The notes below the pieces were generated by a model. It saw nothing but the letters and a program-made list of their open reading frames with translations, was not told the origin of the DNA and did not search any database. The position numbers and the translations under genes are program-made. Below are positions 1 through 21,375 of a DNA stretch of 56,164 nt, piece by piece; position 1 is the first letter of the stretch, and each line of letters begins with the position of its first letter. Origin of the DNA: a virus (lineage: Duplodnaviria > Caudoviricetes); IMG/VR virus record IMGVR_UViG_3300005918_000026, positions 1 through 56,164 of that record. One strand, written 5' to 3'.

Positions 1-2988
1 TATTACACTTTCATCAGCATTAATGTGGTTTATCGTGTTTAGGCTACCACCAATAATAGCGCAATCTGTAGCAGCAGCATTTATAACTTGACTATCCGTT
101 GTTATATTCCCGTGAACATCTAATTTATTTGTTGGTGTTGCTGTTCCAATACCTACATTACCACCAGCAGGATTTAAGGCTAAATCTTGAACACCACCTA
201 ATGGTGTTAAAGCCAAAATAGATGGTATAGCATAACTATCATAATCCATTCTTAATCTATCTGTTGTGCCAGCAGCACCAGCACTTTGAATAGTTCCATC
301 AACGTGTAATGATACTTCTGCACCTACTTTAATACCTAAATTACCACCAATATAATGAGTACCTGTGCCCCATGCTTCAAAATGGTCTGATTTAACTGAA
401 AATATACCAGTGTTATTACCGTGACCATTTGGTCTTAAAAATATACATTTACCGACAGCACCAGAATGAATATATATATTACCAGACGAATTACTAAACG
501 AATTACCAACAGCAGCATATTCTGTTGCTACAAAATAATCTCCTCTAACAACACCATCTACATCTAATTTATATGATGGTGTTTTTCCAATACCAACTTT
601 ACCACTCGTTCCTCCATCACCAACAACACTCATTATTGTATTACCATCAGTCTGGAACTTATGTATACCACCATTAAAAGTATCTTCTATATCATAAAAT
701 TGCGTGTAAGCTCCAGTATATTCAAAATATACATTACCACGTGTGCCAGAAGAGCCATACATTGAAATACCAGCCTTTTCTGTAGTTACTGCGCTATTCA
801 ATTTTAACCACACTTCATCAGTATCACCTATAAGTGTTAAATCTGTACCATCCCAAGTCAACCCGCTTGAACCAGTTAATGTGTTACCAGTACTACCATA
901 ACCAATATATGTTGATGTTAAACCTACACCATATATTTCTCCTTGAACTTCTAAATCACCTTCAATTAATAAATCTTTATATGTGTTTAAATCATAATAA
1001 GTTGTTAACTCACTTGAAGTTCCGATAGCATTTGAGTACTTTTCTATGCCAGCATAACTACCTTCATTTTCAGTACCAGTTCCGCTTTCATATATTGCTG
1101 CCATATCATCAGCACTTATAACAGCATTATGTATTCTTACATCATCAAATGATGTATTTGCATATCCACTTGCCGCATACCTTGTACCTATACCATCATT
1201 ATAACTACCTTCTTGATATGAAAAAGCGCCAGAATTATCTAATACATTATCTACATATAATTTTGCCGTTGTACCATCAAATGTTACAGCTATCCAATAC
1301 CAAATACCACTATTCAAAACCTTATTACCTGTTACAGATTTTGTTACGCCATCCCAACCAACAAGGTATAATTTAGAACTTACTAATTGTATATTTCTTC
1401 TACCACCAGCATTTCCTATCCAATCTTGGTTAGTAGTTGTATTTAACTTAACCCAAGTAGTATAAGTAAATGAAGCATTATCACTAAAACCCCAATTATC
1501 ACCACAATTTATATATTGAGGATATGTATTTAAGTCTAACGCTTCATTTATTTTACCAGCAACACTGTGGTCTTCTGTGTTAGCACCAACTAAAGTACCA
1601 TTATTACTACCATAATTATCTAATACTGTTGTACTAGCTAAATCATCATTCATTAAGTAATGAGATACTAAATAAGTTGAAAGATTTCCACCTTCTGTTC
1701 CTACAATACTATCCACACCGCCAACTAGATATCTACCATTAACACTTAAATCACTACCATCCCAAGTCAATTCTGTTGAACCTGTTAATAGATTAGAAGT
1801 ATTACCATATCCAATATAAGTATCGGTTAATGTTGTACCTGTTAATATATCATCAACTTGTAATGTACTATCAACCAATCTACCATTAGTAGTAGCAACA
1901 GGAATATAAGTATCAGTTAAGTTAGCACCATCATTAAGTATTACACCTTTTCTATAATTGGTAGAACCATATTGAAGTTCAATATGCCTTATACCCATGT
2001 AACTACCATTTCCCCAATCATTTTCAAATTTGAAAGCATAAAATTGATATGCTGTTGAGTTTGAAAATGTTATGTATTTCGGGTCAACTTGGTCTAAAGC
2101 AATATGTTCTTCCATTTGACCAGCTGCAATATAAACCCAAGTTCCATCATTAACATAAACTTGGTCATCATAATCTGCTTGTGTATTTGAACCCCAAATA
2201 GTAAAATCTTTTACACCAGCATTTGTAGTACCACCGAGTGAATGTGAATTTTCATAATATATTCTATTTGCTAATACAGGAGTATTATATTTAATATGAA
2301 ATCTTTGATTTATTGGAGAACCATTCGCACTATACCAAGCTCGATTAACTGGTGTACCAGTTAAGATTTGTGCTGGATTTGTTGCTCTATACGACCAATA
2401 CTGTGTACTAAATTTTGTTGTTGCAATAGTATATAAACTTGAAAATGTTGGTGGATAAAATGGTGTATAAACTGCCGCACTTGGTGTAGTAATACCAACA
2501 TAATAATCATCACTCATAAATTCAACAACACCAGTTTCACTATCAGTATTCAAATCTCCACTATTAAATTGTAATGGTGCTTCATCAGTTGTTCCAGCTG
2601 GAAGTATTAATCTACCAGTCATTGTATCACCAGTTATATGGACAAAATTGCCGTGGACAAAAGGAGATGCTGCAAAAATGTTTTCAATGTTAGTATTTCC
2701 AGAATATATTGTCCCCCCAGAGAGACTTGCGGCATATAATGTATTAAACGTAGAATTCCCTGTTACCACAAAATCCCCATTAACGGTTCCACCTGTCAGA
2801 CCTAAGAATGAATTAGAACCAATTTCAAATACATTAGTACCATCAAAAGAATATAATTTTCTATCTGAGGTATTTAGAGCAAGTTCACCCTGTATGATAT
2901 AGTTTAATTCTGTACCAGTAGTTCCCGTAGGTGCCTTATTAGGCACAGCAGTCCTCTTTGGCAAAAGTCTTACATTTCTTGTAGCCAT
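1..2988 (-). CDS. Large modular tail fibre / receptor-binding protein (partial, runs off window start): fibre N-terminal motif, F5/8-like domain, LamG domain, GNVGIGT repeats
   Basis: ATG at 2988 (MATRNVRLLPKRTAVPNKAPTG...QGELALNTSDRKLY). Frame read by eye in several segments without stops. It is absent from the ORF track, consistent with having no stop inside the window. It shares the TGDTMTG and RIYYEN...GVKDFTIWGSNT modules with 5999..9853. Confidence 0.85.
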   Translation of the reverse strand, partial: MATRNVRLLPKRTAVPNKAPTGTTGTELNYIIQGELALNTSDRKLYSFDGTNVFEIGSNSFLGLTGGTVNGDFVVTGNSTFNTLYAASLSGGTIYSGNTNIENIFAASPFVHGNFVHITGDTMTGRLILPAGTTDEAPLQFNSGDLNTDSETGVVEFMSDDYYVGITTPSAAVYTPFYPPTFSSLYTIATTKFSTQYWSYRATNPAQILTGTPVNRAWYSANGSPINQRFHIKYNTPVLANRIYYENSHSLGGTTNAGVKDFTIWGSNTQADYDDQVYVNDGTWVYIAAGQMEEHIALDQVDPKYITFSNSTAYQFYAFKFENDWGNGSYMGIRHIELQYGSTNYRKGVILNDGANLTDTYIPVATTNGRLVDSTLQVDDILTGTTLTDTYIGYGNTSNLLTGSTELTWDGSDLSVNGRYLVGGVDSIVGTEGGNLSTYLVSHYLMNDDLASTTVLDNYGSNNGTLVGANTEDHSVAGKINEALDLNTYPQYINCGDNWGFSDNASFTYTTWVKLNTTTNQDWIGNAGGRRNIQLVSSKLYLVGWDGVTKSVTGNKVLNSGIWYWIAVTFDGTTAKLYVDNVLDNSGAFSYQEGSYNDGIGTRYAASGYANTSFDDVRIHNAVISADDMAAIYESGTGTENEGSYAGIEKYSNAIGTSSELTTYYDLNTYKDLLIEGDLEVQGEIYGVGLTSTYIGYGSTGNTLTGSSGLTWDGTDLTLIGDTDEVWLKLNSAVTTEKAGISMYGSSGTRGNVYFEYTGAYTQFYDIEDTFNGGIHKFQTDGNTIMSVVGDGGTSGKVGIGKTPSYKLDVDGVVRGDYFVATEYAAVGNSFSNSSGNIYIHSGAVGKCIFLRPNGHGNNTGIFSVKSDHFEAWGTGTHYIGGNLGIKVGAEVSLHVDGTIQSAGAAGTTDRLRMDYDSYAIPSILALTPLGGVQDLALNPAGGNVGIGTATPTNKLDVHGNITTDSQVINAAATDCAIIGGSLNTINHINADESVI

Positions 2989-2993
2989 ATTTC

Positions 2994-3057: not shown

Positions 3058-3058
3058 C

Positions 3059-3121
3059 TATAAATAGCTTAAAAATTTATACTGAAAAAGATTTAATAAT
3101 TTTTTTTCTCCCCTATTTATA
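3059..3121. promoter_or_regulatory. Divergent pair of putative late promoter motifs (TATTTATA on each coding strand)
   Basis: TATAAATA on + at 3059-3066 (TATTTATA for the minus-strand gene) and TATTTATA at 3114-3121 upstream of the tail tube gene; the same motif precedes about 20 genes in the window. Confidence 0.65.
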
Positions 3122-3641: not shown

Positions 3642-3950
3642 TTATAAACCAACATAGACAGTCATATTGGCTTCGCTGTCTGGTACCACAATATATACAT
3701 TAGACATATACAAAAGGTCTGTAACTTCATTTTTTACATATAATTGATAATCTCCGTAAGTGGAGGCTGACCAAGAAAATGCAAATGCGGCTCTTTCCGC
3801 ATTTGTTAACGTTTCGCTTATTGTTAATCCTGTATATAGAGAGCCATCTTTAAACATTTGAGCATCGAAAGTTGCAGCCGATACTGGGTTGTTTAAATAA
3901 TCAAAAGATAAAACATTTTCATATATTGTGCGTCCTGTTGTTATTTTCAT
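3642..3950 (-). CDS. Hypothetical virion structural protein (Ig-like)
   Basis: 102-aa beta-rich ORF with a TATTTATA motif at 3961-3968. Confidence 0.6.
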   Translation of the reverse strand: MKITTGRTIYENVLSFDYLNNPVSAATFDAQMFKDGSLYTGLTISETLTNAERAAFAFSWSASTYGDYQLYVKNEVTDLLYMSNVYIVVPDSEANMTVYVGL

Positions 3951-3973
3951 GACTTTTTGTTATAAATAGTTAT

Positions 3974-4612
3974 TTATATAAATTTATTTTTCATTGCATT
4001 GAAATTTTGTGTAACTTCTGGCTGCAATAATTCTTTATTATAGATTTTTATGTTCGCTAAATTACCATGTAGACGATAAAAAGTTACACTACTATACCTC
4101 CCCAAATAAAAAGCCGAATTCCAACTATTAGTTCCAATATATTGACTATCATACACACCATTAATATATGTTTTTGATAGTAACCCAGCCGAATTATACG
4201 TATATGTATAATATGTCCATATATTATCTGGTATAACACCAGTTGTAAAATAATTACCAGCAAATTGTTGTAACACATAACCACTAGTTGAAATTAGAAT
4301 CCTACGCAAACCAGAATAACCCATAAATGCTCTATAATTACCCGTATTAATTAAATACATCCAACCACATATTGAAAAATCTGTCGATGTTAAATTTAAA
4401 CTAGGTACAATACCATAATCATCATCAAAAGGACCTCTAAAATATAAACTCCCACCATTGGACGAATCAAATGCTGGACTATTAATTAGTGTAGCGTAAT
4501 TACTATCAACTAAATTAGTCCATGTATCACCACTTTTCGGATAAGATTTTTTGTTAGCTGCATCTAAATACAACACCAAATCATCTGTTACTATTTTTGG
4601 GCCTATTTTCAT
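3974..4612 (-). CDS. LamG / concanavalin A-like lectin domain protein (paralogue 3)
   Basis: VTDDLVLYLDAANKKSYP N-terminus, YINGV, KIYNKEL..EVTQNFNA C-terminus. Confidence 0.8.
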   Translation of the reverse strand: MKIGPKIVTDDLVLYLDAANKKSYPKSGDTWTNLVDSNYATLINSPAFDSSNGGSLYFRGPFDDDYGIVPSLNLTSTDFSICGWMYLINTGNYRAFMGYSGLRRILISTSGYVLQQFAGNYFTTGVIPDNIWTYYTYTYNSAGLLSKTYINGVYDSQYIGTNSWNSAFYLGRYSSVTFYRLHGNLANIKIYNKELLQPEVTQNFNAMKNKFI

Positions 4613-5301: not shown

Positions 5302-5999
5302 AATCCAAATCTCCTTCTTAAAACATTAAAATTTTGTATAACTTCTGGTTGTGATAAACTTCTGTTATACATTTGTGTTATGGCATTTTTACCATAAAAT
5401 TGATACAAGTTTCTATTTATATCCCTACCTATTCCTGTTAACAATGTAGTTGAATTGATTGCGCCAGATGGGATAGAACCCATTTGATTACATGATACAA
5501 TATTGCCATTTTTATAAAGTGCTAAAACACCTGTATTTTCATCATATGTTGCAACAATATAATACCAATTGCCGACTGCAACTTCACTAGAGATTGACCG
5601 TAAATTAGTGAATGATGCTGCGGCTGTTTTTACATAAAAATCTAATTGTCCACTATTAGCATGATTTGTTAAGTAATATGAATAAGCAGACGCACTCCAA
5701 CGAGCCATAATTGTATTATATCCTAATAAAGAATCCCAATTAACCCAAACACAAATTGACATTGATGTTGGGTTTAACGATGTATTGTTTCCGAATGACA
5801 CATAATCTCCATCTTGTGAAAATTGCATAACACCACTATTTATAGCCTCAAAGTCAATATTTACCATCGCCCCATCGTTTCTATGCCCACTCATGTCAGT
5901 CCACACCGCTCCGCTACCTGGATAAGACTTTTTATTTGCCGAGTCTATATATAACACCAGACCATCTGTTACCATTCTATACCTTGAAAATACTGCCAT
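5298..5999 (-). CDS. LamG / concanavalin A-like lectin domain protein (paralogue 1)
   Basis: VTDGLVLYIDSANKKSYPGSG, WYYIVATYD, LYKNG, MYNRSLS..EVIQNFN. Confidence 0.8.
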   Translation of the reverse strand: MAVFSRYRMVTDGLVLYIDSANKKSYPGSGAVWTDMSGHRNDGAMVNIDFEAINSGVMQFSQDGDYVSFGNNTSLNPTSMSICVWVNWDSLLGYNTIMARWSASAYSYYLTNHANSGQLDFYVKTAAASFTNLRSISSEVAVGNWYYIVATYDENTGVLALYKNGNIVSCNQMGSIPSGAINSTTLLTGIGRDINRNLYQFYGKNAITQMYNRSLSQPEVIQNFNVLRRRFGL

Positions 6000-8900
6000 T
6001 ATAATAACCTCGCTCCTAGTTTAAAATCCCAAGTACCACTTACGATATCTGTTAATAATCTCACATTACCACCAGAGATATCCATACTAAATGTTACTCC
6101 AGTTGTTGAACCACCTAAATCAGATGTGCTTGATTCGGTATATTCTACATTTGTACCATCCCAAACTGACATAATAGTACCAGCCCTAAGCGTTGTTCCA
6201 CTCTGAACAAAGTAATCAAAATATCCAGCTGTTGCTGTGGTTGAACTAAATGAATATAATAAAATTCCTGTATCTGCTGTTAAACTATATGATTCTGATG
6301 AATTCAATATTGAATAACCGTCAGAATGAACACCAAATATTGGTAAACCAGAAATATCATTTATTGATAATAATTCACCATCTAAATCATCAGTTACACT
6401 AAATAATTGTCCATTAGTCCCATATAAATTTAATACAGATGAACCAGAGGTGTTTGTTGTTATATCTAAAGATTTTTCTATTGATGCGCCTCCTGTTACT
6501 GTTAGGCCACTATAAATATAAGTTTCAGCCGATGTTGCCCTAAGAGCTTCAACTCCGTTTGCTATTAGAGAAACTTCTAAAGGATTTCCCCCAATGCCAG
6601 TATTCATAAACGACCTATCTGGAATTATATTTGGATTTACAAAAGATGACTGTTCATTTAATATAGCCCAATAAGATGCAGATGCATATTGAAAAGCTGT
6701 GTCTAAAAAAGAAAATTGTTTATCATTTCCCGTACCAACATTAAATTGACTAGCAGACACATCTGAAATAAAAGTACCACCTGTAAAAGTAATTAAAGTT
6801 CCAAGACTAAGATTACCAGTCATTGTATCACCAGTGATATTTACATATCTAGCATCTCCTATTGTTTCTGTTATAATATCAGCAACCTGTAACGAACTAT
6901 CAATTAATCTACCATTAGTTGTTGCAACGGGAATATAACTATCAGTTAGGTTTGAACCATCAGATAATATAATTCCTTTTCTAGGATTACCACCCAAAGC
7001 GCCAGTTTGTAACTCAATGTGTCGTATTGACATATAAATTTCCGATGCATCCGCCCAATTATCAGCAATTTTAAACGCATAATATTGATATGCAGTAGTA
7101 TTGGTAACATATACAAATTTAGGGTCAGCTATATCTGAACCTGAGTGTTTTTCAAATTGATTAACATCACAAGTCAATTCAACCCAAGTGCCATCATTAG
7201 CATAAGTTAAATCAGTGAAATCGCCAGCAGTATTAGAACCCCACAGAGTAAAATTCTTAACACCTGTATCAGTGAACCCACCAGATGAATGTCCATTCTC
7301 ATAATAAATCCTTGTAATTGCCTTACTAGAGCCTAAATCAATGTGCAATCTTTGGTTTGTGTTTGTTCCATTAACACTAATCCAACTAATATATTTCCAA
7401 TTTCCCGTTAATGGTAACGTTGGGTCAGTTGCAAACCAAGGTGAATATGTTGTACTAAACGTAGTTGTTGCCTTTACATAACTAGTAGTTTGTGTTGGTG
7501 GATACTCTCCATTATAATCAGCAACCCTAATTGTACCATAATAATCGTCATCAACAAATTCAATTGCTCCTTGCTCTTTGGTTGTTAATAAAACGCCAGA
7601 TACAAATTTCAGTGGTGCAACTGTAGTTGAACCAGAAGTTAAGGTAAGATTACCAGTCATTGTATCACCAGTGATATTTACATACCTAGCATCAAGTTCT
7701 TCGCCTCTATAATCAAACGATGTTGCACTTAACGCTGTGGTTGTATCAAATCTATATAAACTATCATTCCAATAAGCAAAACCATTCACTATTGGCGAAT
7801 TCTCTCTTGTTGCCACAGCCTGTGTATCACCCGATACACCAACTCTAAAATCATCGGTGGATTCATTAAATAAAAATAAATAATTTTGCCATCCACCTCT
7901 ATCTATTTCAATGCCCGCTGTACCTTTAGTAACGCCAGAAATATCAGTTCTACCAGAAAGATAATTAAGTGTTAATAAATTATCAGATATTAATACATTT
8001 TCGGTTGTTGCACTGATAACAGGACCACTAACTATTAAACTGCCAGAAATTCTTGCATCACCGTCAATTTCTAAATTTCCCGTCATTGTGTCACCAGTAA
8101 CATTTACATATCTAGCGTCACCAATAGTTGGTGTTATTATATCAGCAACCTGTAACGAACTATCAATTAATCTACCGTTAGTAGTTGCTACTGGTATGTA
8201 ATCTTCTGTTAAATTAGTTCCGTCATTTAATATAATACCTTTTCTTGGACTAGAGCCACCTGATTGCAACCCTACTCTTCTTAAACCTATGGCCATACCG
8301 CTCCCATAGTTAGCTGCACATTTAAACGCATAATATTTATATGCAACTGTATTAGTAACATAAATATATTTAGGGTCAGCTTGATTCGCGTCAACATGTC
8401 GCGTCATTACAGAAACATCGGTAGTTAATTGAACCCATGTACCGTCATTATTATAAACTAAATCATCAAAGTCTGACTGAGTATTAGAGCCCCATAATGT
8501 AAAATTTTGCACACCAGCATCAGTTAAAGAACCATCCTGGTGTAAATTTTCATAATAAACTTTTGTTATTACCTGAGCAATATGTAAATTAATATGTAAA
8601 CGTTGATTTGCTGTTGCGCCTACAGAAACCCACGCATTCCAATTTGCAGCGCCTATTAAACTTGTACTTGGATTGGCAACATATGGTGCTTCATATTGAA
8701 CCGTCTCACTTGTTGCTTTTATGTATGTAGAAGTATACGCTGGTGGATTTTGACTTACGTAAGGGTCTAAACCAATATTTGCATAATAATCATCGGTTAA
8801 ATATTCTATAGCGCCAGAAATTTCCGTGGTTAATAATGGACCACTTTGAAATTGTAATGGAGCAGTTATTGTTGTTCCAGGTGTTAATATAAGACTACCC

Positions 8901-9853: not shown

Positions 9854-9937
9854 GTAATTGTTTTTTTATAAATAGTTTAAAATTTATTGGTCATGTAATC
9901 ATTTTTTAAACTATTTATAAAAGAATAAAAGTATTTT

Positions 9938-10328: not shown

Positions 10329-10685
10329 ATGAGTAACCAGATTTTTAAAATAAAAAGGAACGACACGTTACCAGCTTTACAGTTAAATATTGTATCTAAA
10401 GGGAATTTAGGCCAAAAAATAGATTATAATCTTAGCGGAGTAAGTTCTATTTCTTTTTCTATGGCAGATGAGTGTAACAATCTAAAAGTGTATCAACAAT
10501 CCGCACAAACCATTTGTCACTCAGAAGGAACAATACAATACAACTGGCAAGATGGAGATACAGATACATCGGGTACTTATCGAGGAGAATTTGAATTAAC
10601 TTATGCTACGGGACAAAGAATGTCTCTCCCTCAAATGGGAAGTATAAAAATAGAAATCTTCGACGATATAAATTCTTTCGATTAA
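10329..10685 (+). CDS. BppU N-terminal-like (Ig-fold) baseplate/fibre-attachment protein
   Basis: IKRNDTLPAL...GTIQYNWQDGDTDTSGTYRGEFELTY pattern. Confidence 0.65.
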   Translation: MSNQIFKIKRNDTLPALQLNIVSKGNLGQKIDYNLSGVSSISFSMADECNNLKVYQQSAQTICHSEGTIQYNWQDGDTDTSGTYRGEFELTYATGQRMSLPQMGSIKIEIFDDINSFD

Positions 10686-11855: not shown

Positions 11856-12974
11856 CTAATACGCTCCTCCATCAAGCACATCCAGCTCCGTCAACACTCT
11901 CACTCCATTCGGACTAACAGTTGTTCCGCTTTCTCGAATTCGAATATCATATAAATTTGTAGCGAATGAGCGATTGTTAGCGCCTATACCAGTCCCTCTA
12001 ATATCAAAGTATGCAGTAGTTCCACTTACCCCCAACCCATCCTGGACTTCCCACCCAGCTCCCAAAGAGGTCACTGATGTATCACCAGTAGGATTAAAGT
12101 TCATAGTAATTCTATTATCTTCAATATAAAGCTGTCCAGTATATGCGCTAATAGCTGCTCCATACACAGTTAAATTCCCGTGAATAACCAAATCTCCCAC
12201 GCCTGGACTAGCTATTGAACCCCCTGAGCCTATCTCTCCATTTGTAACATACATGGTACTTGTAGATTCATTATACTGAAACCCTGTTTCTCCTGTAAGA
12301 GAACCATCACTAGCAATGTAAACTATTTGGCTTGGTGTTAAATTTGTTGTAATTCCAGAAACGGCTAAATTATAAGCGTATACGTTTTGCCAATAAGCAG
12401 AGGGTGAACCTAAATTATAAGCACCATCTACACTTGGCACAATGTTGCCGCCAGCTGTTGTTGCACTTCCAAGAATTGTGTTTGCAAGTACATTTAAATT
12501 ATCAATTGTGAGTGATGATGCAGATATAGAAGGTACAAAAAGTGTACTTGAAGATGCGACATAAGAAAATTGAGAACTTGCAGAAAACTCTCCTCCATAA
12601 TTATACTGAACATTATAATCACTTCCAGCTGCAGATGAACTAATATCAGCAATATTCGCCAATATCATTCCAGCACTTGTTGTACCACTTAAAAATTGGC
12701 CAGCCATATTAGTTACGCCAGCATATTCAGTAATAGTTCCACCAGAACCAATTATAAAATTATTGTTAATATTTAAGCTAGTTAGTTTTGAGCCAACTTC
12801 AAATACTGTCGGTTGCCCGCCTGCTGGAATAAAACTACCGCCTGTATACCCAGAAAAATATAAGATACCATCAAAAACGTTTACAAACGGCTCTCCATAA
12901 AAAGCATTAATAGGAACACTTCCACCAGTAGAGATTTTTTTTCTTAATTTATATCTAATATCTTTTAACGCCAC
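11856..12974 (-). CDS. Tail fibre-like structural protein
   Basis: 372 aa, GTG start, GEPFVN..DGILY N-terminal fibre motif; IEDNRITMN...AGWEVQDG module resembles ISDNLLTLN...AGIEIDRG in 5999..9853; ends LDGGAY. Confidence 0.7.
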   Translation of the reverse strand: MALKDIRYKLRKKISTGGSVPINAFYGEPFVNVFDGILYFSGYTGGSFIPAGGQPTVFEVGSKLTSLNINNNFIIGSGGTITEYAGVTNMAGQFLSGTTSAGMILANIADISSSAAGSDYNVQYNYGGEFSASSQFSYVASSSTLFVPSISASSLTIDNLNVLANTILGSATTAGGNIVPSVDGAYNLGSPSAYWQNVYAYNLAVSGITTNLTPSQIVYIASDGSLTGETGFQYNESTSTMYVTNGEIGSGGSIASPGVGDLVIHGNLTVYGAAISAYTGQLYIEDNRITMNFNPTGDTSVTSLGAGWEVQDGLGVSGTTAYFDIRGTGIGANNRSFATNLYDIRIRESGTTVSPNGVRVLTELDVLDGGAY

Positions 12975-13032
12975 AATACACCATTTATTATAAATAGTAT
13001 TTTTTTGTTAATTTTCAAGCTAAATTATAACC

Positions 13033-13086: not shown

Positions 13087-15504
13087 TTAAAAGTCTTCGA
13101 AGTTTGCGCCAGCTGGAAGCACTTGGAAAGTAAGGTCAATGTATTCTACAGTTCTTGTAGGTTTCAATTGAATCTTTCCTACCAATGTGTTTCTATCAAT
13201 TGTATCATTGTTATTGTTTGAATCGTCCATTACAACCTTAAAGGAATATAATCCTCTTTGATTTTGGATTTGTAACAATATTGGTTCAACTTTAGCTAAG
13301 AATTGGTCACGAATCGTTTGGTCATTTTGCTCGAACAATAATGTTAATGAAGCTGCTGCAACAAGCCTTCTAACTTGAAGAAGAAGTCTTCTAACATTAA
13401 TTCTATCAAGAGCTGATTGACGTTGTTGTAAAGTTTTTTGTCCTAAAATTACGATTCCTTGTTGTACAAAAGAAGCAATTGGATTAACTCTACCTCTATA
13501 AAGAGTATCTCTACTGTTTTTATTTAATTTAACATCAGTTTTCTTAATACTTGAACCAGCGATACCTCTATTAAAACCTGCAGGTGCGTACCATGGGTTC
13601 GCTACACTATCTGTCAAAGCGATTGCTTTAATTGCAAGCAATGTAGCAGGCTGATAAGTATATTTACCTGTATTGTTGTCCACAATTTGAATCCATGGCC
13701 AGAATGTTGTTGCATAATTAGAATCCACTCCTGTTGACTCTAATAAATTTACAACTTCTTCTGGTGTTCCCTTGGTTTGTCCAACAGTTATCCTTGGAGC
13801 ATCAATTACATAAAGTGAATCAGCTCTTTCTTCGATTACATCAAGAGCATACTTGATAATATCATAGTTATGGCTGAAATCGATACCTGGAGTTGCGAAT
13901 AAGTTAATATCAACATCTTCTGGATTTTCAAACGTGTCAACCGCTGATTTAAATGCGTATACATTTGCTTGATAAGCATCTGTGAATAATGCGTAAGGGT
14001 CAGATGACATTTGATATTTGTCCCATCCATCAAATCCGCCGTAAGGAGATACGGTAAATTTCAATTTATTTTTATCAATTAAAGTCCCAGCCACATTTGT
14101 ATATGCAGTAAGAGAATTTAAACTTCCACTTTCAAACTGAGTAGAGTTTGCAGTATTCTCAAGGTGAAAACCTTTAATTGTTGTTTTTCCTGTTGCTACA
14201 CCACCTTCATACTCAAACATATCTGCTTCTAAACTCTTAACTTGATTAGAAGTTGAAGCCGCTGCGTTTGTGTTTGTATATCCTTTTTCAGAAAGTCCAA
14301 GATATGTTTTGAAAATTGAATCTCCTGATAAGTATCCAGTTTTATAATAAAATACTGGAGGTGTTGCCTCACTAACCGTTGTGCCTCCTCTAAGCTCATA
14401 TCCTCTAAATCCAGAAGGAACAGCATTAGAAGGAATTGCATCAGCCAACTCTAAAGCTATAAAGCTAGATTTGATTGGGAATTCTTCATCATAAGTTCCA
14501 ATTACCTTAGCAATATAATTCTCAGCTGTGTCATCAAGAGTCATATTTGAAAATCTCTCAAGAGCCGTTGCGCCAACCTCAGCATCTGTATCAGAGAATC
14601 TTCTAACAATAACATCAAAAGTATAATTAACAATATCAATATTTGATATCGAAATTTTCAATTCTGTGTTTGCCGCGTCACCATCAGAAATAGTTCTGAA
14701 CTTAAACAAATTTCTTACTTGTCCACCAATAACTCTGGATACAATCCAAGGAGTTGTTGCATGTGTATATTCATTCTCAAAATCTGTATAGTTAACATCT
14801 GTTTTATAAACTGGCGTTGCTTGTACATTTACAATATCACCTCTTGATGTTGCTTCTCTAATAAAATGAGGATAGATTTTTTCCACATAGAAATTAGGAA
14901 CCTCATCTAAAATTTCTGTTGTTTTTCCAAGAATCTTAACAATGTAATTATCTTTTGTTTCATCTAAGGAAACTGTATAACTATTTCCAGATTCAGCCCC
15001 CACGAATGGACCTGTACTTCCACTTATTGTGAAGTCTCCCAGCGGAGATGTTGGAGCGGTCAATATTTCGATATCACTTTCCAAAGTATAATAGAAAGCT
15101 CCACTGATTTGATTTCTCTTACTTCTCAGTATTGCAAGTGTTGCACCTGAATATTGTCCATTTGCCTCGGCCGTATAATCAGCTACAAGTAACCATCCAT
15201 TTGAATTTTCAAAACCTGCGTCAGAACCGTCTTCTTTCCCTGTTCCAAGTACTCTTGTCACTGTTAAATCATTAGCCTGCGCCAAAAACGAACTCGCTAC
15301 ATAAGGTAAAGGCAAGTCTGGAGACGTACCACCGAATCTTAACAGAAATTCATCTGATGTTGCAATTTTTATTGGTTCAAAAGCTGGTCCTTTTTCTGTA
15401 AGTCCAGCTAATCCCAATCTTGTTATTCCAATCCTAGAAGCGAAAACGCTAAAATCTTGTTCTTTAGTATAAACGCCTGGGGATACAAAGATAGTCGTTG
15501 CCAT
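13087..15504 (-). CDS. gp18: Tail sheath protein (T4 gp18-like)
   Basis: FVSPGVYTKEQD, KGPAFEP, PWYAPAGFNRG, RDTLY..RVNPI, GQKTLQ, SALDRINVRRLL. Confidence 0.97.
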   Translation of the reverse strand: MATTIFVSPGVYTKEQDFSVFASRIGITRLGLAGLTEKGPAFEPIKIATSDEFLLRFGGTSPDLPLPYVASSFLAQANDLTVTRVLGTGKEDGSDAGFENSNGWLLVADYTAEANGQYSGATLAILRSKRNQISGAFYYTLESDIEILTAPTSPLGDFTISGSTGPFVGAESGNSYTVSLDETKDNYIVKILGKTTEILDEVPNFYVEKIYPHFIREATSRGDIVNVQATPVYKTDVNYTDFENEYTHATTPWIVSRVIGGQVRNLFKFRTISDGDAANTELKISISNIDIVNYTFDVIVRRFSDTDAEVGATALERFSNMTLDDTAENYIAKVIGTYDEEFPIKSSFIALELADAIPSNAVPSGFRGYELRGGTTVSEATPPVFYYKTGYLSGDSIFKTYLGLSEKGYTNTNAAASTSNQVKSLEADMFEYEGGVATGKTTIKGFHLENTANSTQFESGSLNSLTAYTNVAGTLIDKNKLKFTVSPYGGFDGWDKYQMSSDPYALFTDAYQANVYAFKSAVDTFENPEDVDINLFATPGIDFSHNYDIIKYALDVIEERADSLYVIDAPRITVGQTKGTPEEVVNLLESTGVDSNYATTFWPWIQIVDNNTGKYTYQPATLLAIKAIALTDSVANPWYAPAGFNRGIAGSSIKKTDVKLNKNSRDTLYRGRVNPIASFVQQGIVILGQKTLQQRQSALDRINVRRLLLQVRRLVAAASLTLLFEQNDQTIRDQFLAKVEPILLQIQNQRGLYSFKVVMDDSNNNNDTIDRNTLVGKIQLKPTRTVEYIDLTFQVLPAGANFEDF

Positions 15505-15569
15505 ATTTTATCAATTTTTTGTATATTCTATAACTTTTTTATAAATAGATAAAAAAAGTGTTAATTAAT

Positions 15570-16280: not shown

Positions 16281-16311
16281 ACTCTTTTTAATATAAATAG
16301 TTTAAAAATTA

Positions 16312-17208: not shown

Positions 17209-18126
17209 TTAATTTGTAAATCTTACATCACTAGGAATCAAAGAGTTTCTATGAACCCTAAAAATGAAAGATAGTGTTTTTTCATTGTTCGATAAATAAT
17301 CAATTGATACTTCGTTATTAAATTTCATAGCAGATACAACATCTATTAAACCGTTGGTTAATTTGAATATTTTATTATCAACATAAATCCATTCGTCGAA
17401 TTTCATAAGACCATCTTTGAATATTTTTTTAGCTTTATATGCATTTTCAAACCTTGGGGCTTCTGTTAAAAGATTTATTTGTTCTTTAATCGTAGCTCTT
17501 ATTTTATTTTCATGTGATTCGTCTAACATTTTATGCCTTTTATTTATAGCAGTTTCTAATAATTTTTCTAACCATATCCAGGCCTCTTTTTTACCTTGGT
17601 CAGTAATTTGCACATCTTTATAGTCAACTCCATCTTCACTGTCTTGCCATGCTCGATATCCCTTTTCTGTTTTTTTGAGTTGGTTGCCAGCTTCTACAGG
17701 AGGAATTAATACATATTTACGATGCATATTTATAAATCCTTTTCTTTCTAAATCCCAAACATATTTTTTTTCAGAGTAATAATCACTACTTATTAGACTA
17801 TAAGCACGAGTTATTTCAACTTTAAAATACATTACAGGACATTCCCAATCGCCACCAGCCATATACATCTCTGCTTTAACTTCATATTTAACTGGTTGGT
17901 CTTTTCGAAGATTCTTCTTTATGTAGAAAGCTTTCTTTTCATTGGTTGAATCATTGTTTTCTAGGTCAAAATTTATTTTTTGAAAATCTTGAGCTTCTTT
18001 TATAACATCTATCCATGCACCATCCACAAGACTGTGATAATTGAAAATTTCTTTTTTCTTATCTTGTTTTCTGGAGGAAATTGATTCTCGTACCAGTTTT
18101 CTTATATGTTTTTCATTTTCTACCAC
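17209..18126 (-). CDS. Hypothetical protein (possible internal head protein)
   Basis: 305 aa, GTG overlapping the neck gene stop; IRKLVRESI and IRATIKEQI motifs. Confidence 0.65.
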   Translation of the reverse strand: MVENEKHIRKLVRESISSRKQDKKKEIFNYHSLVDGAWIDVIKEAQDFQKINFDLENNDSTNEKKAFYIKKNLRKDQPVKYEVKAEMYMAGGDWECPVMYFKVEITRAYSLISSDYYSEKKYVWDLERKGFINMHRKYVLIPPVEAGNQLKKTEKGYRAWQDSEDGVDYKDVQITDQGKKEAWIWLEKLLETAINKRHKMLDESHENKIRATIKEQINLLTEAPRFENAYKAKKIFKDGLMKFDEWIYVDNKIFKLTNGLIDVVSAMKFNNEVSIDYLSNNEKTLSFIFRVHRNSLIPSDVRFTN

Positions 18127-19316
18127 AAATATAATCCCATTGGTCCATAACTTAAGCTTGTATTTACAGCATCTTGAATAGCCGCATTTCTTTCCATGAT
18201 TTTATCATAATTAAGCTCTGTTAATTGTTCTTTAAGTTCGTCTCTGAGCATTTTTTGGTCTTCTCTACTAGTAGCGATTAAATCATCTTTATTTAGAGTT
18301 AATACAGCATCTGGAATTGGCAATTCTCCATTAAACTTACCTCTTATACCAATACCTAAAACTTCTTTTGCTAACGCTTGGGCGTATTTTTTAACCCATG
18401 TTTGAGCTACAGAATTTAATTGATTATATGCAATATAATTAAGTTGAGCATCTCCAGGAGAAGAAACTAATCCATTTCCTTGATATCCTGCGTCAATTTG
18501 TTCTTGTGTATGGCCAGTAAATCCAGGATTAGCTGTATTTCCAGAATATTCTGGATTTCCATAATTCCCGTATCTATCGTAATATCTGTAAAATAATCGC
18601 CCAGGAGTACCTGCACCACCACCAATTCCAGGGGCGGCATTACCAGCTTCTGACCCTGGCCTTGGAATAGGAAATAAAGTAATAACTTTTTTACCCTCGG
18701 CTCCAGGTCTGATTAGATATGAATATTCTGAACCTCTTACTCTGTTTCTCATTTCAGCGGCTTGAGCTGTCATAATAACATCGTATACAGGCATAACATG
18801 ATAAAGAGTGTGTCCCGCAAAAGATGCTCCAAATTCTGAGAATGCGATATTAGTATTTGCAAATGGGTCAAGTCCATATAAATTAATAAAACTAGGAGTA
18901 AACCATAATACCTCATTTATTTCTCTTTCAGTAGGTATTTCATAATGTTGTGTTCCAGCAGTAAGGATAATTGAATCAGTTTTTATTTCTCTGGTACCTT
19001 CTGCTCCTAATCCCGTTTGCTCTGCAATAGATTTCCCAAAAGATTTTTCAAAATATAAACTATTAGAAACATATTTGAGAGTAAAATCTACCTCAGATGG
19101 TAAACCTAACATTTCTCCTAACCTATTTGTCATTACCCAGTTATTTATATATGTAGAATACTCTTCTATTGCTTCACAAATACATTCTTCAATGTTTTCA
19201 TCAAGCAATTCTACACCCATCACAGGTGCACCAAGTTTTCTTCGTATACGACTGTATATTTTGACTATTTCGGTGCTGGTCATTCCTGACAGACAACCAT
19301 CTGTGCAAAAACTCAT
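18120..19316 (-). CDS. gp13: Neck / head-tail adaptor protein (T4 gp13-like)
   Basis: RRKLGAPVMGVEL, WVKKYAQALAKEVLG..RGKF..LPIP..VLTLN. Confidence 0.85.
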   Translation of the reverse strand: MSFCTDGCLSGMTSTEIVKIYSRIRRKLGAPVMGVELLDENIEECICEAIEEYSTYINNWVMTNRLGEMLGLPSEVDFTLKYVSNSLYFEKSFGKSIAEQTGLGAEGTREIKTDSIILTAGTQHYEIPTEREINEVLWFTPSFINLYGLDPFANTNIAFSEFGASFAGHTLYHVMPVYDVIMTAQAAEMRNRVRGSEYSYLIRPGAEGKKVITLFPIPRPGSEAGNAAPGIGGGAGTPGRLFYRYYDRYGNYGNPEYSGNTANPGFTGHTQEQIDAGYQGNGLVSSPGDAQLNYIAYNQLNSVAQTWVKKYAQALAKEVLGIGIRGKFNGELPIPDAVLTLNKDDLIATSREDQKMLRDELKEQLTELNYDKIMERNAAIQDAVNTSLSYGPMGLYLW

Positions 19317-19331: not shown

Positions 19332-19598
19332 TTATTTATAATAAGGAGGTTGTTGTGTCTGTTGATGATGAGACTTAAACCCCACGAAAGAACCACTTGA
19401 TACGGTACATTTACCAATAAGAACATCTATAGTTTGACCAGACGTTGCCGTCCAGGTGAAGTTGCCACCACCCTGCGGTTTTACTATAATGGCACCATTA
19501 GTTAAACATAAAATTTGATGAACTACTGATGTTTCCGTGTTTGCAGTATAACCCGCATCTAATGATACACTTTCAAAATTTTGATTGTAAAAAGCCAT
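19332..19598 (-). CDS. Small hypothetical virion protein
   Basis: 88-aa beta-rich ORF directly after MCP, with TATTTATA at 19614-19621. Confidence 0.65.
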   Translation of the reverse strand: MAFYNQNFESVSLDAGYTANTETSVVHQILCLTNGAIIVKPQGGGNFTWTATSGQTIDVLIGKCTVSSGSFVGFKSHHQQTQQPPYYK

Positions 19599-19663
19599 TG
19601 TTTTAAGTTTTTTTATAAATAGTGAAAAAAATTACAATGGTTTCTAATCTGGGAGGTATAGAC

Positions 19664-19694: not shown

Positions 19695-19716
19695 AATATG
19701 GTAGTTAATCTTACTA

Positions 19717-21375
19717 CTAGTAAGTATTAATATTGTCAATAATGATAACAGCATAAAATCTGTTATTAACCATTTTCTTCGCATAACGAGTCATGATTCC
19801 TTTACGAGGTGTGAAGTCATTAGGGTCAGTGATTGTTTGTGTTAATTGAAGAGGAATATACGGCGCGTAGATGTAACCTGCTTCTAAGAATGTGTTACCT
19901 TTGTGACCTAAAATTACAAGCTGTGCTGGTAAATAAGGGTCTTTGTAAACTACATATCTTGAACCTAAGTTTCCAATTTTTTCAACACCAAGGTTATATT
20001 TTTCGCTTTCTGGAGCTGCGCTACCGTCAACGTGGAAATATTCAAGGTCATCAAAAATTGCACCTGCTTCTGCTGAACAGATTACCCAGTTAGCTCCACC
20101 TCTCAATGTTGCTTTATGAATTTGAGCTGAAAGTTCATTAATACGAGTGATTAATGTTTGATTCCAGTCCTTCTGTGTTCCGAAGAAGTTTGCGTTATTT
20201 GCAAGCCCTTTATAATCCCAACGTGCGCGGAACGGAGCTTGGTTTGCAAGGTCAATGATGATTTCACGGTCAATCTCAGCCGCAACGTGCTCTGACAGTA
20301 ATGCTGTCAATTCCGCTTCTGCGTCAATTGAATGGTATGCTTCAAGGTCTTGCGCCAATTCAGGAGTCCAGTGAGCTCTAAGCTTACGAGTAATCGTAGT
20401 TACAGTTACACTAGAGAATCTGATTGTAATTTCTGCCATCTCTGACTTACCTTCTAGGTCATTATAAATTTCATAGATAGGTTTGATTTGAATTTCACAT
20501 GCGGTACCGAAGTTGCCAGCGTTGTCATTCAATTTAGTGTAGTCAAAATCACTACCTTGTACAGATGCAGGACGTGCGTCAAAAACAACTTTAGCGATGT
20601 TATTTGCAAACATGTCTGATGTCCAAGTTTGAATTTGTGAGAAGAATGGCCAGTTTTGTTCAGTTGCATCAATAATTTTGATGTTTTGTGAACCTGCACT
20701 GTAATATAAAGATGTTACAGCAGAGAAACGTACAGTTGCACTAGATTGCTGTCTGCTAACATCAAAAGATGTTCCCAAAGTAGCGTCCGTAGCGTACAAA
20801 CCGTTGGATAAACTGTCAGCTGAGAAAGTAAGTAAGGTTGCATCTAGTACAGTTTCACCAGTACCAAAAGAAAGGTCGAAACCTTTGTTTCCATAAAATC
20901 TTTCATAAGCTGTTGTGTCAGCAAATTGAGGACCTGCATTGCCATTGGCAGTGTTTGAAGGTGCTACTTTCTGACTGTTTTCACCATCAAACTGTGTTTC
21001 ATGGGAAATTGGGCTTTGTTGTGTGTTGTCACTACCGTCAAATGATACTCTTGCGTCCATATAGAACAAAAGTCCAGAAGGTAATGCTAAAGGTTGAACA
21101 GATACCAATTCGTTTGCTAGTAAACGTGAAAATACACGTCTAACGATTGGAAATGCTACAGTGTCAAAACGACCTGCAGAGCTATCAAGTGTCACCTCAT
21201 TTAACATGTGGTGAGCTTGGTTTTCAAGCAACTGAGCTGTGTTTGATTTGCGCATTCCGTCCAAATCTTCAAGTAATCCTGAATTTTCCCAGTTATTAAT
21301 AATTGATTGACGTTGTTCGGCCAAATCTTTAAATACTGTCAGACCTACTTTTCCTGATTTTAAAAGTTCGCTCAT
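19717..21375 (-). CDS. gp23: Major capsid protein (T4 gp23-like)
   Basis: VSVQP..LPSGLLFY, TRKLRA.WTPELAQDL.AYHSIDAEAELT, YAPYIPL, FTPRKGIMTRYA. Confidence 0.97.
   Translation of the reverse strand: MSELLKSGKVGLTVFKDLAEQRQSIINNWENSGLLEDLDGMRKSNTAQLLENQAHHMLNEVTLDSSAGRFDTVAFPIVRRVFSRLLANELVSVQPLALPSGLLFYMDARVSFDGSDNTQQSPISHETQFDGENSQKVAPSNTANGNAGPQFADTTAYERFYGNKGFDLSFGTGETVLDATLLTFSADSLSNGLYATDATLGTSFDVSRQQSSATVRFSAVTSLYYSAGSQNIKIIDATEQNWPFFSQIQTWTSDMFANNIAKVVFDARPASVQGSDFDYTKLNDNAGNFGTACEIQIKPIYEIYNDLEGKSEMAEITIRFSSVTVTTITRKLRAHWTPELAQDLEAYHSIDAEAELTALLSEHVAAEIDREIIIDLANQAPFRARWDYKGLANNANFFGTQKDWNQTLITRINELSAQIHKATLRGGANWVICSAEAGAIFDDLEYFHVDGSAAPESEKYNLGVEKIGNLGSRYVVYKDPYLPAQLVILGHKGNTFLEAGYIYAPYIPLQLTQTITDPNDFTPRKGIMTRYAKKMVNNRFYAVIIIDNINTY

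Follow-up and report, generated by a model that had tools for sequence, protein, structure and literature searches.

A short motif in excess in the particle proteins

The window analysed here is a 56,164-nucleotide stretch of the genome of an uncultured giant phage. The 18 open reading frames (ORFs) at or below base 21375 were pooled as its particle proteins. On the reverse strand lie the genes for a 996-aa fibre read from the window edge and carrying a Laminin_G_3 domain (1..2988; 12 matches to [ST][GA]x[ST] against 7.2 expected), a 102-aa protein of no known family (3642..3950; 4 against 0.5), a 1284-aa fibre (5999..9853; 33 against 11.4), a 372-aa fibre-like protein (11856..12974; 15 against 3.6), the 805-aa tail sheath (13087..15504; 8 against 3.4), a 398-aa neck or adaptor protein (18120..19316; 4 against 1.1), an 88-aa protein beside the capsid gene (19332..19598; 3 against 0.6) and a 552-aa major capsid protein (MCP) of the T4 gp23 type (19717..21375; 4 against 2.0). 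A 118-aa clade-conserved protein (10329..10685; 2 against 0.4) is encoded on the forward strand.

Pooled, the particle ORFs hold 89 matches where 500 within-protein shuffles give 35.7 (sd 6.0, z 8.9). No comparable surplus occurs in the remaining 41 ORFs (15 against 12.8 expected), and with the three fibres removed the particle proteins still hold 29 matches against about 13.9. The original prediction, that unrelated structural proteins carry the motif repeatedly, is borne out by this count, and all 41 peptides that it listed are present in the genes it named (11 in the 1284-aa fibre, eight in the 372-aa, three in the 102-aa and two in the 118-aa protein, four each in the sheath, neck and MCP, and two in the 88-aa protein). 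It also judged the motif to be scarce in the enzymes and VWA protein; scarce it is, but composition suffices to account for this (one match in the VWA protein against 1.2 expected), and special avoidance is not indicated. The general O-glycosylation sequon of Bacteroidota is D(S/T)(A/I/L/V/M/T), from which the motif was correctly said to differ, and this sequon shows no surplus in the particle proteins (31 against 27.8). No published report of the motif was found in the literature searched.

The excess is real, ordered and sharply specific. Six same-residue reordered motifs and spacing variants give ratios of 0.80-1.27 across the 18 particle ORFs, and shuffles that keep local composition leave a surplus of 2.8-2.95x. 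Synonymous codons within the motif match the background of the same genes, which places the signal at the protein level. S, T and G are abundant in the window's particle proteins, none of which contains a collagen-like tract.

The motif can be given a sharper form, hydrophobic-[S>T]-[G>A]-x-[T>>S]-hydrophobic, and hydrophobic-Ser/Thr-Gly/Ala-x-Thr occurs at about 2.5x expectation in outward-facing particle proteins. Position -1 favours L, F, I, V, Y and W (3.7-7.9x); at position 2 the surplus is limited to G (2.8x) and A (2.0x); position 3 often holds turn formers (D, N, G, S, T); and at position 4 T (3.4x) is much preferred to S (1.4x). Motif sites have G:A ratios at position 2 of 205:138 in the capsid and 56:40 in the sheath, against 1003:35 and 311:16 in ordinary Gly columns, suggesting that position 2 acts as a 'small residue', unlike a turn glycine.

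Matches lie in outward-facing domains

The excess is confined to outward-facing parts of the particle proteins. All eight sheath matches lie at residues 119-466, leaving the conserved C-terminal sheath domains free of them; over 11 sheath sequences, the N-terminal and insertion part holds 127 matches against 45.1 expected and the inner C-terminal part 10 against 7.3. The four MCP matches had been placed in an inserted region, and all of them indeed lie at residues 172-229, ahead of the Gp23 Pfam match at 252-541. Across 69 capsid sequences the insertion holds 373 against 126.7 and the core 7 against 38.0, in a set where, counted over the full-length protein, one permuted control is itself at 2.08x. 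The window's tail tube has no match, and the tube, protease, scaffold-like and two small proteins of six genomes, pooled, have 13 against about 11.3. In AlphaFold2 secondary structure, from low-confidence models (mean pLDDT 61.2 and 48.5), all eight mappable matches appear at a beta-strand boundary, where a folded domain would be accessible.

Within the fibres, six matches coincide with a conserved tail-fibre motif of the ..Y(V/L)x(V/L)(S/T)G(G/D)TMTGxL type. Tail-fibre PHROG families match exactly these six stretches, one in the 996-aa fibre (residue 119) and five in the 1284-aa fibre, where they form a repeated ..YVN[VI][ST]GDTMTG.L element at residues 128, 313, 586, 728 and 1007. This conserved motif accounts for 6 of the 89 matches and for none outside fibres. 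About five matches of the 1284-aa fibre lie within N-terminal repeats of ~10 residues, and those of the 372-aa protein recur every ~20-35 residues with no broader repeat consensus around them. Exposed lectin-like domains show no excess in three Laminin_G_3 proteins (3 against about 2.8), the domain in the 996-aa fibre (residues 501-628) having no match at all, and neither does the F5/8-C region.

The excess runs through one clade of phages

The excess extends across a clade of Bacteroidota-type jumbo T4-like phages. Eleven orthologous non-fibre proteins are enriched 2.1-2.8x in the window and in five large related records (G001-G005), with controls at 1.1-1.5. All four sites of the neck protein are kept in G001, G002 and G003, in which orthologues of the 118-aa protein carry two to four matches each. 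In the sheath, nine motif columns are common to at least three genomes (controls 0-2). Lineage-specific single sites are no commoner than controls (26 against 20-28); with the surplus in conserved columns and none in new singletons, sequon turnover is not seen. In the relatives, tracts of the collagen-like type (G-S/T-S/T)n inevitably contain the motif, and collagen-like G-(S/T)-(S/T) fibres are saturated with it in G003, G004 and G007, the last a record of a second lineage described below. With the tracts masked, the excess stays in G001 (1.85), G002 (1.76) and G005 (2.15) and is weaker in G003 (1.44) and G004 (1.52). Proteins of G003 bear type IX secretion C-terminal sorting domains, and the account in PMC12619734 gives Flavobacteriia as predicted hosts of similar phages; the host phylum is likely Bacteroidota.

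Phage particles in general do not have this excess. T4 has 57 matches against 52.7 in 29 structural proteins, and its beta-rich fibres, sheath, Hoc and capsid are not enriched. There is no specific excess in Flavobacterium phage immuto (ratio 1.25, controls 0.91-1.89), LR756511 (1.27, controls 0.89-1.52) or phi92 (1.33x, controls up to 1.37), and none in RM378 (0.58) or over 100 kb of LR756508 (53 against 54.9).

A phage glycosyltransferase family accompanies the motif

The candidate reader of the motif is a soluble GT-B glycosyltransferase (GT) of 462 aa, encoded on the reverse strand at 27454..28842. It is kept in four of the five large related records (G001, 57%; G002, 53%; G004, 41%; G005, 42%), belongs to a family that is almost entirely viral, and has no PDB match beyond generic GT-B/GT4 enzymes. 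Searches of T4, immuto, RM378 and LR756508 did not recover it; LR756511 has a weak 81-residue match to a generic C-terminal GT1 domain (E 1.5e-4) and no clear orthologue, and phi92 has a remote, split homologue. A promoter-like sequence found before structural genes, TATTTATA, is absent ahead of the GT gene.

A homologue with 30-34% identity occurs in the unrelated LR756501 lineage, where no window-like capsid protein was detectable in any of the 12 records searched. The motif is enriched there too: the 100-kb LR756501 region holds 74 matches against 34.3 (z 7.0), its positional preferences being those seen in the window, 16 pooled loci of the lineage hold 147 against 81.3, and its complete 243-kb record, G007, holds 231 against 94.7 (z 14.3), with the sheath and fibres among the top motif proteins. 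The GT family is the sole non-structural gene found in common between the window and the 100-kb region. Motif excess and GT family thus co-occur in two separate phage lineages, and the comparison comprises these two GT-positive independent lineages and five negative ones.

The expectation that enrichment would be missing where the GT is missing holds for T4, immuto, RM378 and LR756508 but may fail for G003. This 222-kb record, 87% complete by CheckV, has no homologue of the 462-aa GT and nothing homologous to window positions 24153-56162, PhoH included. Despite this, its core particle proteins are enriched 2.55x and its capsid has five lineage-specific sites. Either the GT block lies in the missing part of the genome, or the link between motif and GT fails.

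Further sugar genes lie on the forward strand. A GT2-type glycosyltransferase of 279 aa (34498..35337), conserved in G001, G002 and G004, stands at the edge of a hypervariable 14-kb sugar-biosynthesis island (35349..49249) that encodes a GT2, a GNAT, a DegT, three NAD epimerase/dehydratases, a GT11, three FkbM methyltransferases, a GT1-like protein, two NKWYS proteins, a PfkB kinase and a UDP-GlcNAc 2-epimerase. In G001, the closest complete relative, BLAST finds nothing homologous to the island at the syntenic place, and there are few homologues, almost none, anywhere in the relatives. Beyond it lies a conserved block of four genes (51438..55433) for proteins of 266 aa, 423 aa (GT1-type), 316 aa and 324 aa; the order of the 266-, 423- and 324-aa genes is kept in G001, G002, G004 and G005, and the 316-aa gene lacks a BLAST hit in G001. 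The original prediction had named the window's glycosyltransferases as a set; the link found here is with the one conserved GT-B gene and does not extend to the whole set. No membrane-spanning segment occurs in any island or transferase protein of the window, in keeping with an acceptor in the cytoplasm.

A candidate glycosylation site

We read hydrophobic-[S/T]-[G/A]-x-T-hydrophobic as a candidate O-glycosylation acceptor on folded particle proteins in the cytoplasm, a tentative reading that we hold at a little under even confidence. The GT-B enzyme would recognize the site at the end of a beta strand or in a turn, in outward domains of sheath, capsid, neck and fibres, and would place the first sugar on the position-4 Thr (or the position-1 Ser/Thr). 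The conserved transferases at 34498..35337 and 52294..53565, together with the strain-specific island, could then lengthen the glycan and supply the nucleotide sugars for it, probably unusual ones (amino, acetylated, methylated, deoxy). The excess, its specificity, its place in outer domains, its conservation and its co-occurrence with the GT family are observed; protein as the enzyme's substrate, the modified residue and the nature of the glycan are points that we infer. The earlier interpretation, an acceptor sequon giving a glycan-coated virion, is partly supported.

Several observations weaken this reading. Six matches belong to the conserved fibre motif and several more to fibre repeats; exposed lectin-like domains are unenriched; the excess sits mainly in conserved rather than newly gained sites; G003 keeps its excess with the GT absent from 87% of the genome; and phi92 combines a split homologue with a ratio of 1.33x. 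The permuted control at 2.08x in the capsid set, the lack of the promoter-like sequence ahead of the GT gene, the generic nature of the enzyme's PDB matches, the low confidence of both structure models and the number of GT-positive independent lineages, two, also count against it.

Bacteroidota O-glycosylation is periplasmic, and phage particles assemble in the cytoplasm; the two cases share a short Ser/Thr sequon and likely the host phylum, and differ in that the Bacteroidota sequon is unenriched here. The TibC/AAH autotransporter heptosyltransferases are cytoplasmic and act on Ser/Thr at many strand-loop-strand sites of TibA and AIDA-I. The proposed enzyme likewise would be a cytoplasmic transferase acting on Ser/Thr of beta-rich surface protein, but enzyme family, sugar and substrate repeats are different. 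For mycobacteriophages, virion O-glycosylation by the phages' own glycosyltransferases is described (Freeman et al. 2023, Cell Host Microbe, via PMC12619734), with glycans at the C-termini of capsid and tail-tube subunits as summarized in PMC12619734. On that summary, both systems have phage-encoded soluble glycosyltransferases near structural genes and a proposed decoration of particle proteins with cytoplasm-made glycans. Unlike those C-terminal sites, the window's tube has no match, its capsid matches are internal, within the insertion domain, and many proteins carry the candidate site, a defined tetrapeptide. In Clostridioides difficile, SgtA is described as a soluble transferase that adds O-GlcNAc to Thr within the collagen-like repeats of the spore-surface protein BclA3 (PMC7157674), a G-x-T context resembling the motif-saturated fibres of G003, G004 and G007. 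As far as that description goes, the window differs in carrying the motif in globular beta domains free of collagen-like tracts, in requiring S/T ahead of G/A, and in tolerating Ala. The conserved tail-fibre motif coincides at six sites; the other 83 of the 89 matches lie outside it.

The main rival to glycosylation is a lineage-specific structural motif, a strand-end or tight-turn cap in beta-rich outer domains and fibre repeats that is kept for folding or assembly, while the glycosyltransferases have a different target, for example DNA or the host surface. We regard this as possible but rather doubtful. The modelled strand boundaries, the turn formers at position 3, the positionally conserved surplus, the PHROG-covered fibre stretches, the repeat-like spacing in the fibres and the excess in G003, whose available sequence lacks this GT, all agree with it; the unenriched beta-rich proteins of T4, the unenriched immuto, RM378 and LR756508, a G/A exchange that does not suit a positive-phi turn glycine, and the recurrence of the motif in proteins and lineages without detectable homology that have the GT in common argue against it. 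It is improbable that the reader makes another Ser/Thr modification (phosphate, acyl, ADP-ribose), or that the motif is a docking site for decoration or chaperone proteins, with GT co-occurrence reflecting common descent or gene flow between aquatic jumbo phages: the sharp preference for certain residues by position and the placement in outer domains are compatible with any reader, and the GT link is drawn from two positive and five negative lineages, but the 59 scanned ORFs include no kinase, protein acyltransferase or ADP-ribosyltransferase, and the GT family is what the two lineages' regions share beyond structural genes. A by-product of S/T/G-rich segments, codon bias or a nucleotide motif, suggested by particle-protein composition and by the relatives' collagen-like tracts, is largely refuted and very improbable, given the permuted motifs, local shuffles, codon usage, tract masking and tract-free window proteins.

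On the glycosylation reading, the outcome would be a sugar coat that varies by strain. Because the motif excess travels with one phage-only sugar-transferase gene, the motif may mark where the phage sugar-coats itself.

Gene content of the window and its relatives

The window comprises an entire IMG/VR virus record, linear, 56,164 bases long, with a G+C content of ~33% and an estimated completeness of 18% (CheckV). A T4-like structural module occupies bases 1 to ~23,500, where profile matches identify a gp23-type major capsid protein (PF07068, 3.4e-74), an S77 prohead protease (PF03420, 4.1e-33), a tail sheath (phrog_23 tail sheath, 9.1e-69), and a tail tube and neck protein (Pfam/PHROG), accompanied by two long fibres and three Laminin_G_3 proteins. 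The predicted gp23 capsid protein, S77 prohead protease and contractile sheath together identify a T4-like (gp23-type) myovirus. Located 3' of this module are a VWA protein, a 462-aa GT-B glycosyltransferase (27454-28842, minus strand) and PhoH, in that order. A plus-strand block of sugar genes then runs from 33.4 kb to the window end, encoding two GT2, one GT11 and two further GT1-like transferases, along with three FkbM methyltransferases, three NAD epimerase/dehydratases, DegT, GNAT, PfkB, UDP-GlcNAc 2-epimerase and two NKWYS proteins. No membrane-spanning segments were predicted in any protein of this block.

Several other genes of the window deserve mention. Three tandem paralogous genes at 3974-5999 (minus strand) encode proteins of 212, 230 and 233 aa that match the same PHROG families, with Laminin_G_3 (Pfam) found in the 212- and 233-aa products; the genes overlap by 4 bases or share one base with the long fibre gene. 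These are likely exchangeable fibre-tip proteins, and they carry no motif excess. A 355-aa protein (10734-11801, plus strand) is 28% Ser+Thr with a mucin-like stretch. It alone in the window shows a clear hydrophobic segment at the N-terminus (residues 3-23), and in the relative G001 the homologue sits far from the structural genes. A 519-aa protein (49314-50873) matches phrog_1745 ('DNA transfer protein', 2e-154) and contains the window's only run of at least five G-x-y triplets, 18 residues long. Among five large relatives (IMG/VR records G001-G005), this protein and the 768-aa VWA-like protein (25096-27402; phrog_2426, 1.5e-136) are conserved in G001 only.

Among cultured phages, Flavobacterium phage immuto comes closest, with a capsid identity of 32%. 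IMG/VR holds at least 598 capsid matches, 80 of which were kept for analysis, and the near-complete records among these relatives span 222-519 kb. In one relative, G003 (L083-L094, e.g. L085:109-2514, L086:6746-7291 and L084:6018-7439), type IX secretion C-terminal sorting domains were predicted in two proteins, of which one is an M12 metalloprotease that also has PKD-like domains; these sorting domains point to Bacteroidota hosts. Other products of G003 are an OmpA-like protein, a PAS histidine kinase, a superoxide dismutase, two aminoacyl-tRNA synthetase-like proteins and a sulfotransferase, and two sheath paralogues lie in tandem (L093:8406-10763 and L093:10820-13456). Large phages from aquatic settings with T4-like structural genes, four core glycosyltransferase groups and predicted Flavobacteriia hosts form a lineage described in a 2025 paper (PMC12619734).

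A tetrapeptide motif is in excess in the particle proteins

The original prediction held that unrelated exterior proteins of the particle repeatedly carry [ST][GA]x[ST], and all of the peptides it listed are present in the window. The 18 ORFs at or below position 21375 hold 89 motif matches, whereas 500 within-protein shuffles predict 35.7 (z 8.9). The predicted difference between structural and other genes was also borne out, as the remaining 41 ORFs hold 15 matches against 12.8 expected. In the same 18 ORFs, six permutations of the identical residue classes occur at 0.80-1.27 times expectation, and the component dipeptide-type patterns of the motif reach at most 1.23 times. With the three fibres removed, 29 matches remain against ~13.9. 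Permuted motifs and shuffles that preserve local composition rule out composition or low complexity as the origin of the excess. Codons within the motif are used as in the remainder of the same genes, which places the signal at the protein level and rules out a DNA-level origin.

A minority of the 89 matches is explained by a known fibre element and by repeats. The element ..YVN[VI][ST]GDTMTG.L accounts for six matches, of which the 1284-aa fibre holds five and the 996-aa fibre one, and PHROG tail-fibre families align to exactly these six stretches. In the N-terminal part of the long fibre, about five further matches fall within repeats of ten residues.

With the excess confirmed, the motif can be put more sharply than it was originally, as hydrophobic-[S>T]-[G>A]-x-[T>>S]-hydrophobic. 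A position scan found enrichment of L (7.9x), F (4.8x), W (4.8x), V (4.5x), Y (3.9x) and I (3.7x) at position -1, of S (3.2x) over T (1.9x) at position 1, and of T (3.4x) over S (1.4x) at position 4. At position 2, G (2.8x) and A (2.0x) lead, followed among the other 18 residues by R (1.6x) and S (1.4x). Position 3 prefers D, N, G, S, T and E, and position 5 is hydrophobic again. The Bacteroidota sequon D(S/T)(A/I/L/V/M/T) is indeed distinct, as had been proposed: it is unenriched in the 18 particle-region ORFs (31 vs 27.8, sd 5.3) and in the other ORFs (25 vs 26.0), ruling out a host-type sequon as the source of the signal.

The excess is shared by the clade and is not general to particle proteins

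Phages outside the clade show no comparable excess. T4 has 57 matches against 52.7 in 29 structural proteins, a set that covers capsid, Hoc, sheath and every fibre. Across 53 kb of immuto structural genes the ratio is 1.25x, within the permuted-control range of 0.91-1.89, and RM378 stands at 0.58x. LR756508 is an uncultured phage of 484 kb with a sheath and capsid 32-44% identical to those of the window; it has 53 matches against 54.9 in a 100-kb stretch containing its capsid, sheath and fibre genes. LR756511 reaches 1.27x (controls 0.89-1.52), and 27 structural proteins of phi92 reach 1.33x, with one control at 1.37. T4, immuto, RM378, LR756508 and LR756511 rule out the excess as a general beta-hairpin trait of particle proteins.

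The five large relatives reach 1.71-2.15x genome-wide, with controls mostly near 1.1. Collagen-like fibres are present in G003, G004, G005 and G007 (a complete 243-kb record of another lineage), and the (G-S/T-S/T)n fibres of G003 and G004 generate many motif matches. With such tracts masked, the ratios are 1.85 for G001, 1.76 for G002 and 2.15 for G005, and drop to 1.44 for G003 and 1.52 for G004, so the tracts account for part of the excess in these last two only. Fibres of G-(S/T)-(S/T) triplets lie at 168011-172273 and 219288-222068 in G003, 140255-142681 in G004 and L267:17134-19365 in G007; their tracts run up to 720 residues and are motif-saturated by construction, and the window has none.

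Eleven orthologous non-fibre proteins show 2.1-2.8x in all six genomes (controls 1.1-1.5). Among these proteins the excess resides in the sheath, the capsid, the neck and two small proteins, whereas the tube, the protease and three other proteins sum to 13 matches against ~11.3 across the six genomes. In 69 distinct capsid proteins we counted 382 matches against 154.5; one permuted control reached 2.08x because of the shared ancestry of these sequences, and within capsid residues 101-380 the motif stands at 3.00x and that control at 1.68x.

Motif sites concentrate in outer domains, at predicted strand ends, and are conserved

Within proteins the matches are unevenly placed, as measured against local-composition shuffles. 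In 11 sheath sequences the N-terminal and insertion part holds 127 matches against 45.1, and the conserved C-terminal domains hold 10 against 7.3. In the 69 capsid sequences, which are not independent of one another, the insertion region holds 373 against 126.7, the first 100 residues 2 against 11.8, and the core 7 against 38.0. From what is established for T4 gp18 and gp23, we take the enriched parts of sheath and capsid to be outward-facing. Exposed lectin-like domains show no such excess: the three Laminin_G_3 proteins have one match each against ~0.8-1.0 expected, and no matches fall in the F5/8-C region of the long fibre or the Laminin_G_3 domain of the 996-aa fibre.

AlphaFold2 models of the capsid protein and sheath were weak (mean pLDDT 61.2 and 48.5, respectively), and in segments of usable confidence 8 of the 12 matches could be mapped, all of them at a beta-strand boundary. 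In five, positions 1-2 (in one case position 1 alone) end a strand and the rest of the motif forms the turn. The other three mark a strand start, with position 4 the first strand residue in two and only position 1 preceding the strand in the third. Four of the eight sheath matches fall where pLDDT is <50 and were left unplaced.

Such placement would be expected if the tetrapeptide were a lineage-specific structural motif of strand ends, an alternative that we consider a serious one, if rather doubtful. The evolution of the sites bears on it in two ways. Alignment of six sheaths placed 71 motif instances in 42 columns, nine of them common to at least three genomes against 0-2 per control, while singleton sites numbered 26 for the motif and 20-28 for controls. 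The excess is therefore kept by conservation of sites and not by faster gain, a pattern that fits a structural and a functional site alike. At motif position 2, the G:A ratio is 205:138 in capsids and 56:40 in sheaths, whereas ordinary Gly columns of the same regions give 1003:35 and 311:16, where Gly gives way chiefly to Asn, together with Asp in capsids and with Ser in sheaths. This free exchange suggests that position 2 needs a small side chain rather than the backbone conformation of glycine, which argues against a simple turn-glycine explanation.

The 462-aa glycosyltransferase and its co-occurrence with the excess

The gene of the 462-aa glycosyltransferase, our candidate reader of the motif, lies 6 kb from the capsid gene. 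Its product matches phrog_7162 glycosyltransferase (E 4.6e-35) and, in the C-terminal domain only, PF00534 (27.5 bits, gathering cut-off 26.4); its nearest Atlas clusters are 96-100% viral. By sequence it matched generic GT4 enzymes in the PDB that act on small molecules or lipids, at E 5e-4 or weaker and with no protein-acting relative among them; for both GT1-type enzymes, PDB searches of this kind returned generic GT-B matches only.

The original prediction expected motif enrichment to accompany the glycosyltransferase genes across related phages, and this held in part. We found no homologue of the 462-aa enzyme in T4, immuto, RM378 or LR756508, and only a weak 81-residue match to its generic C-terminal GT1 domain in LR756511 (E 1.5e-4). 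By lineage, five lack both a clear orthologue and an excess, and phi92, where homology is remote and split across two genes, has no clear excess and tells little as an independent case with the enzyme. The 735-kb record LR756501 encodes a homologue with 30-34% identity over >90% of its length, and in the 100 kb examined this is the only protein shared with the window besides a weak sheath match. That region holds 74 motif matches against 34.3 (z 7.0; permuted controls 0.91-1.40) with the same preferences as the window, for G rather than A, for T rather than S at position 4, for S rather than T at position 1 and for a hydrophobic residue ahead of the motif. Six-frame sheath and glycosyltransferase C-terminal matches at 553937-554257 and 541498-541845 of this record contain in-frame stops (one TAG, two TAA); recoding is not evident in the 100-kb region, where coding density is equal under tables 15 and 11.

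Searching IMG/VR with the enzyme yielded 79 loci, which we counted over 10 kb on each side with collagen-like tracts masked. The 16 LR756501-type loci hold 147 matches against 81.3, the 24 window-type loci 493 against 268.3, and the 39 others 730 against 345.7. The window capsid protein was then used to search 50 of the records behind these loci. It matched 23 of the 38 that are not LR756501-type (20 at 56-63% core identity, one at 75%, one a partial 81-residue match at a contig end at 62%, and one weak, E 1.9e-7), so the 63 window-type and other loci are not independent of the window clade. None of the 12 LR756501-type records searched, one rated complete among them, gave a window-like capsid match. 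The complete LR756501-type record G007 has 231 matches against 94.7 genome-wide (z 14.3; controls 1.07-1.55), its top proteins including a 1288-aa sheath (15 vs 3.9) and two fibres. Enzyme and excess thus occur together in two lineages without detectable capsid homology.

As an apparent exception to this association, G003 keeps the excess, with five capsid sites of its own, and no copy of the enzyme was found in its 222 kb (rated 87% complete). Every gene of window 24153-56162, PhoH included, is absent from G003, so the glycosyltransferase block may sit in the missing part; the syntenic place holds fibre genes and a DNA polymerase instead. That something other than a glycosyltransferase reads the motif we regard as improbable.

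A variable sugar locus and a promoter-like octamer

In G001, the closest complete relative and syntenic with the window, as well as in G002, G004 and G005, the 462-aa glycosyltransferase and three of four block genes (266 aa - GT1 423 aa - 316 aa - 324 aa) are found in order; BLAST left the 279-aa GT2 without a match in G005 and the 316-aa gene without one in G001. The 14 kb at 35349-49249 have almost no counterpart in any relative and their flanks are largely conserved, the pattern of a putative hypervariable glycan locus. The corresponding position in G001 (~180-203 kb of that record) is occupied by a different island.

As a guide to expression timing, the T4-type late promoter TATAAATA was rejected, since the element that really precedes the structural genes, in gene orientation, is TATTTATA. 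This octamer precedes at least 14 genes, 10 of which belong to the structural module, and sits ~10-45 bases 5' of their start codons (examples at 3114-3121, 3961-3968, 9867-9874, 9912-9919, 12989-12996, 15540-15547, 16292-16299, 19614-19621 and 23512-23519), and near-matches precede the capsid and scaffold-like genes. Counting its complement, it occurs 31 times in the window against 11.3 expected, and it looks to be the phage's late-promoter element. It precedes 41316 and 55467 but neither the 462-aa glycosyltransferase nor the first island gene, so expression timing supports neither side.

Comparison with known systems and implications

To our knowledge, sugar coats on tailed-phage particles are established only for mycobacteriophages, and we know of no short acceptor motif for any phage; our literature search found no published phage sequon of this kind. 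As in the mycobacteriophage-type systems, glycosyltransferase genes lie near structural genes in the window. According to PMC12619734, the mycobacteriophage glycans are carried at the C-termini of capsid and tail-tube subunits, whereas the window's tube has no matches and its capsid has them at residues 172-229 of 552, a comparison that covers motif positions. BclA/BclA3-type glycosylation differs in using long (G-x-y)n tracts with acceptor Thr, and the particle proteins of the window have no run of at least five such triplets.

Of the original prediction, then, the excess itself stands, and its reading as an O-glycosylation acceptor site is the best single explanation; judged from sequence, we would put it just short of an even chance. 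We further propose, tentatively and thinking it somewhat likelier to fail than to hold, that hydrophobic-[S/T]-[G/A]-x-T, where it ends a strand on a folded outer domain, is recognised by a phage-only family of GT-B enzymes. These would prime a strain-variable glycan coat over the whole particle (capsid, neck, sheath and fibres) in two or more lineages of jumbo phages whose capsids show no detectable homology. If so, sequon-directed sugar coats would be common among aquatic jumbo phages.

If the motif proves structural, it would still serve as a marker for outer domains in this clade and warn against taking short Ser/Thr motifs for sequons. If instead the tetrapeptide is tied to one enzyme family, glycosylated particle proteins would be predictable from sequence alone, the large, fast-changing sugar-gene islands of these phages would be explained, and one enzyme, short peptides and nucleotide sugars would suffice for a simple in vitro test, although these phages are uncultured.
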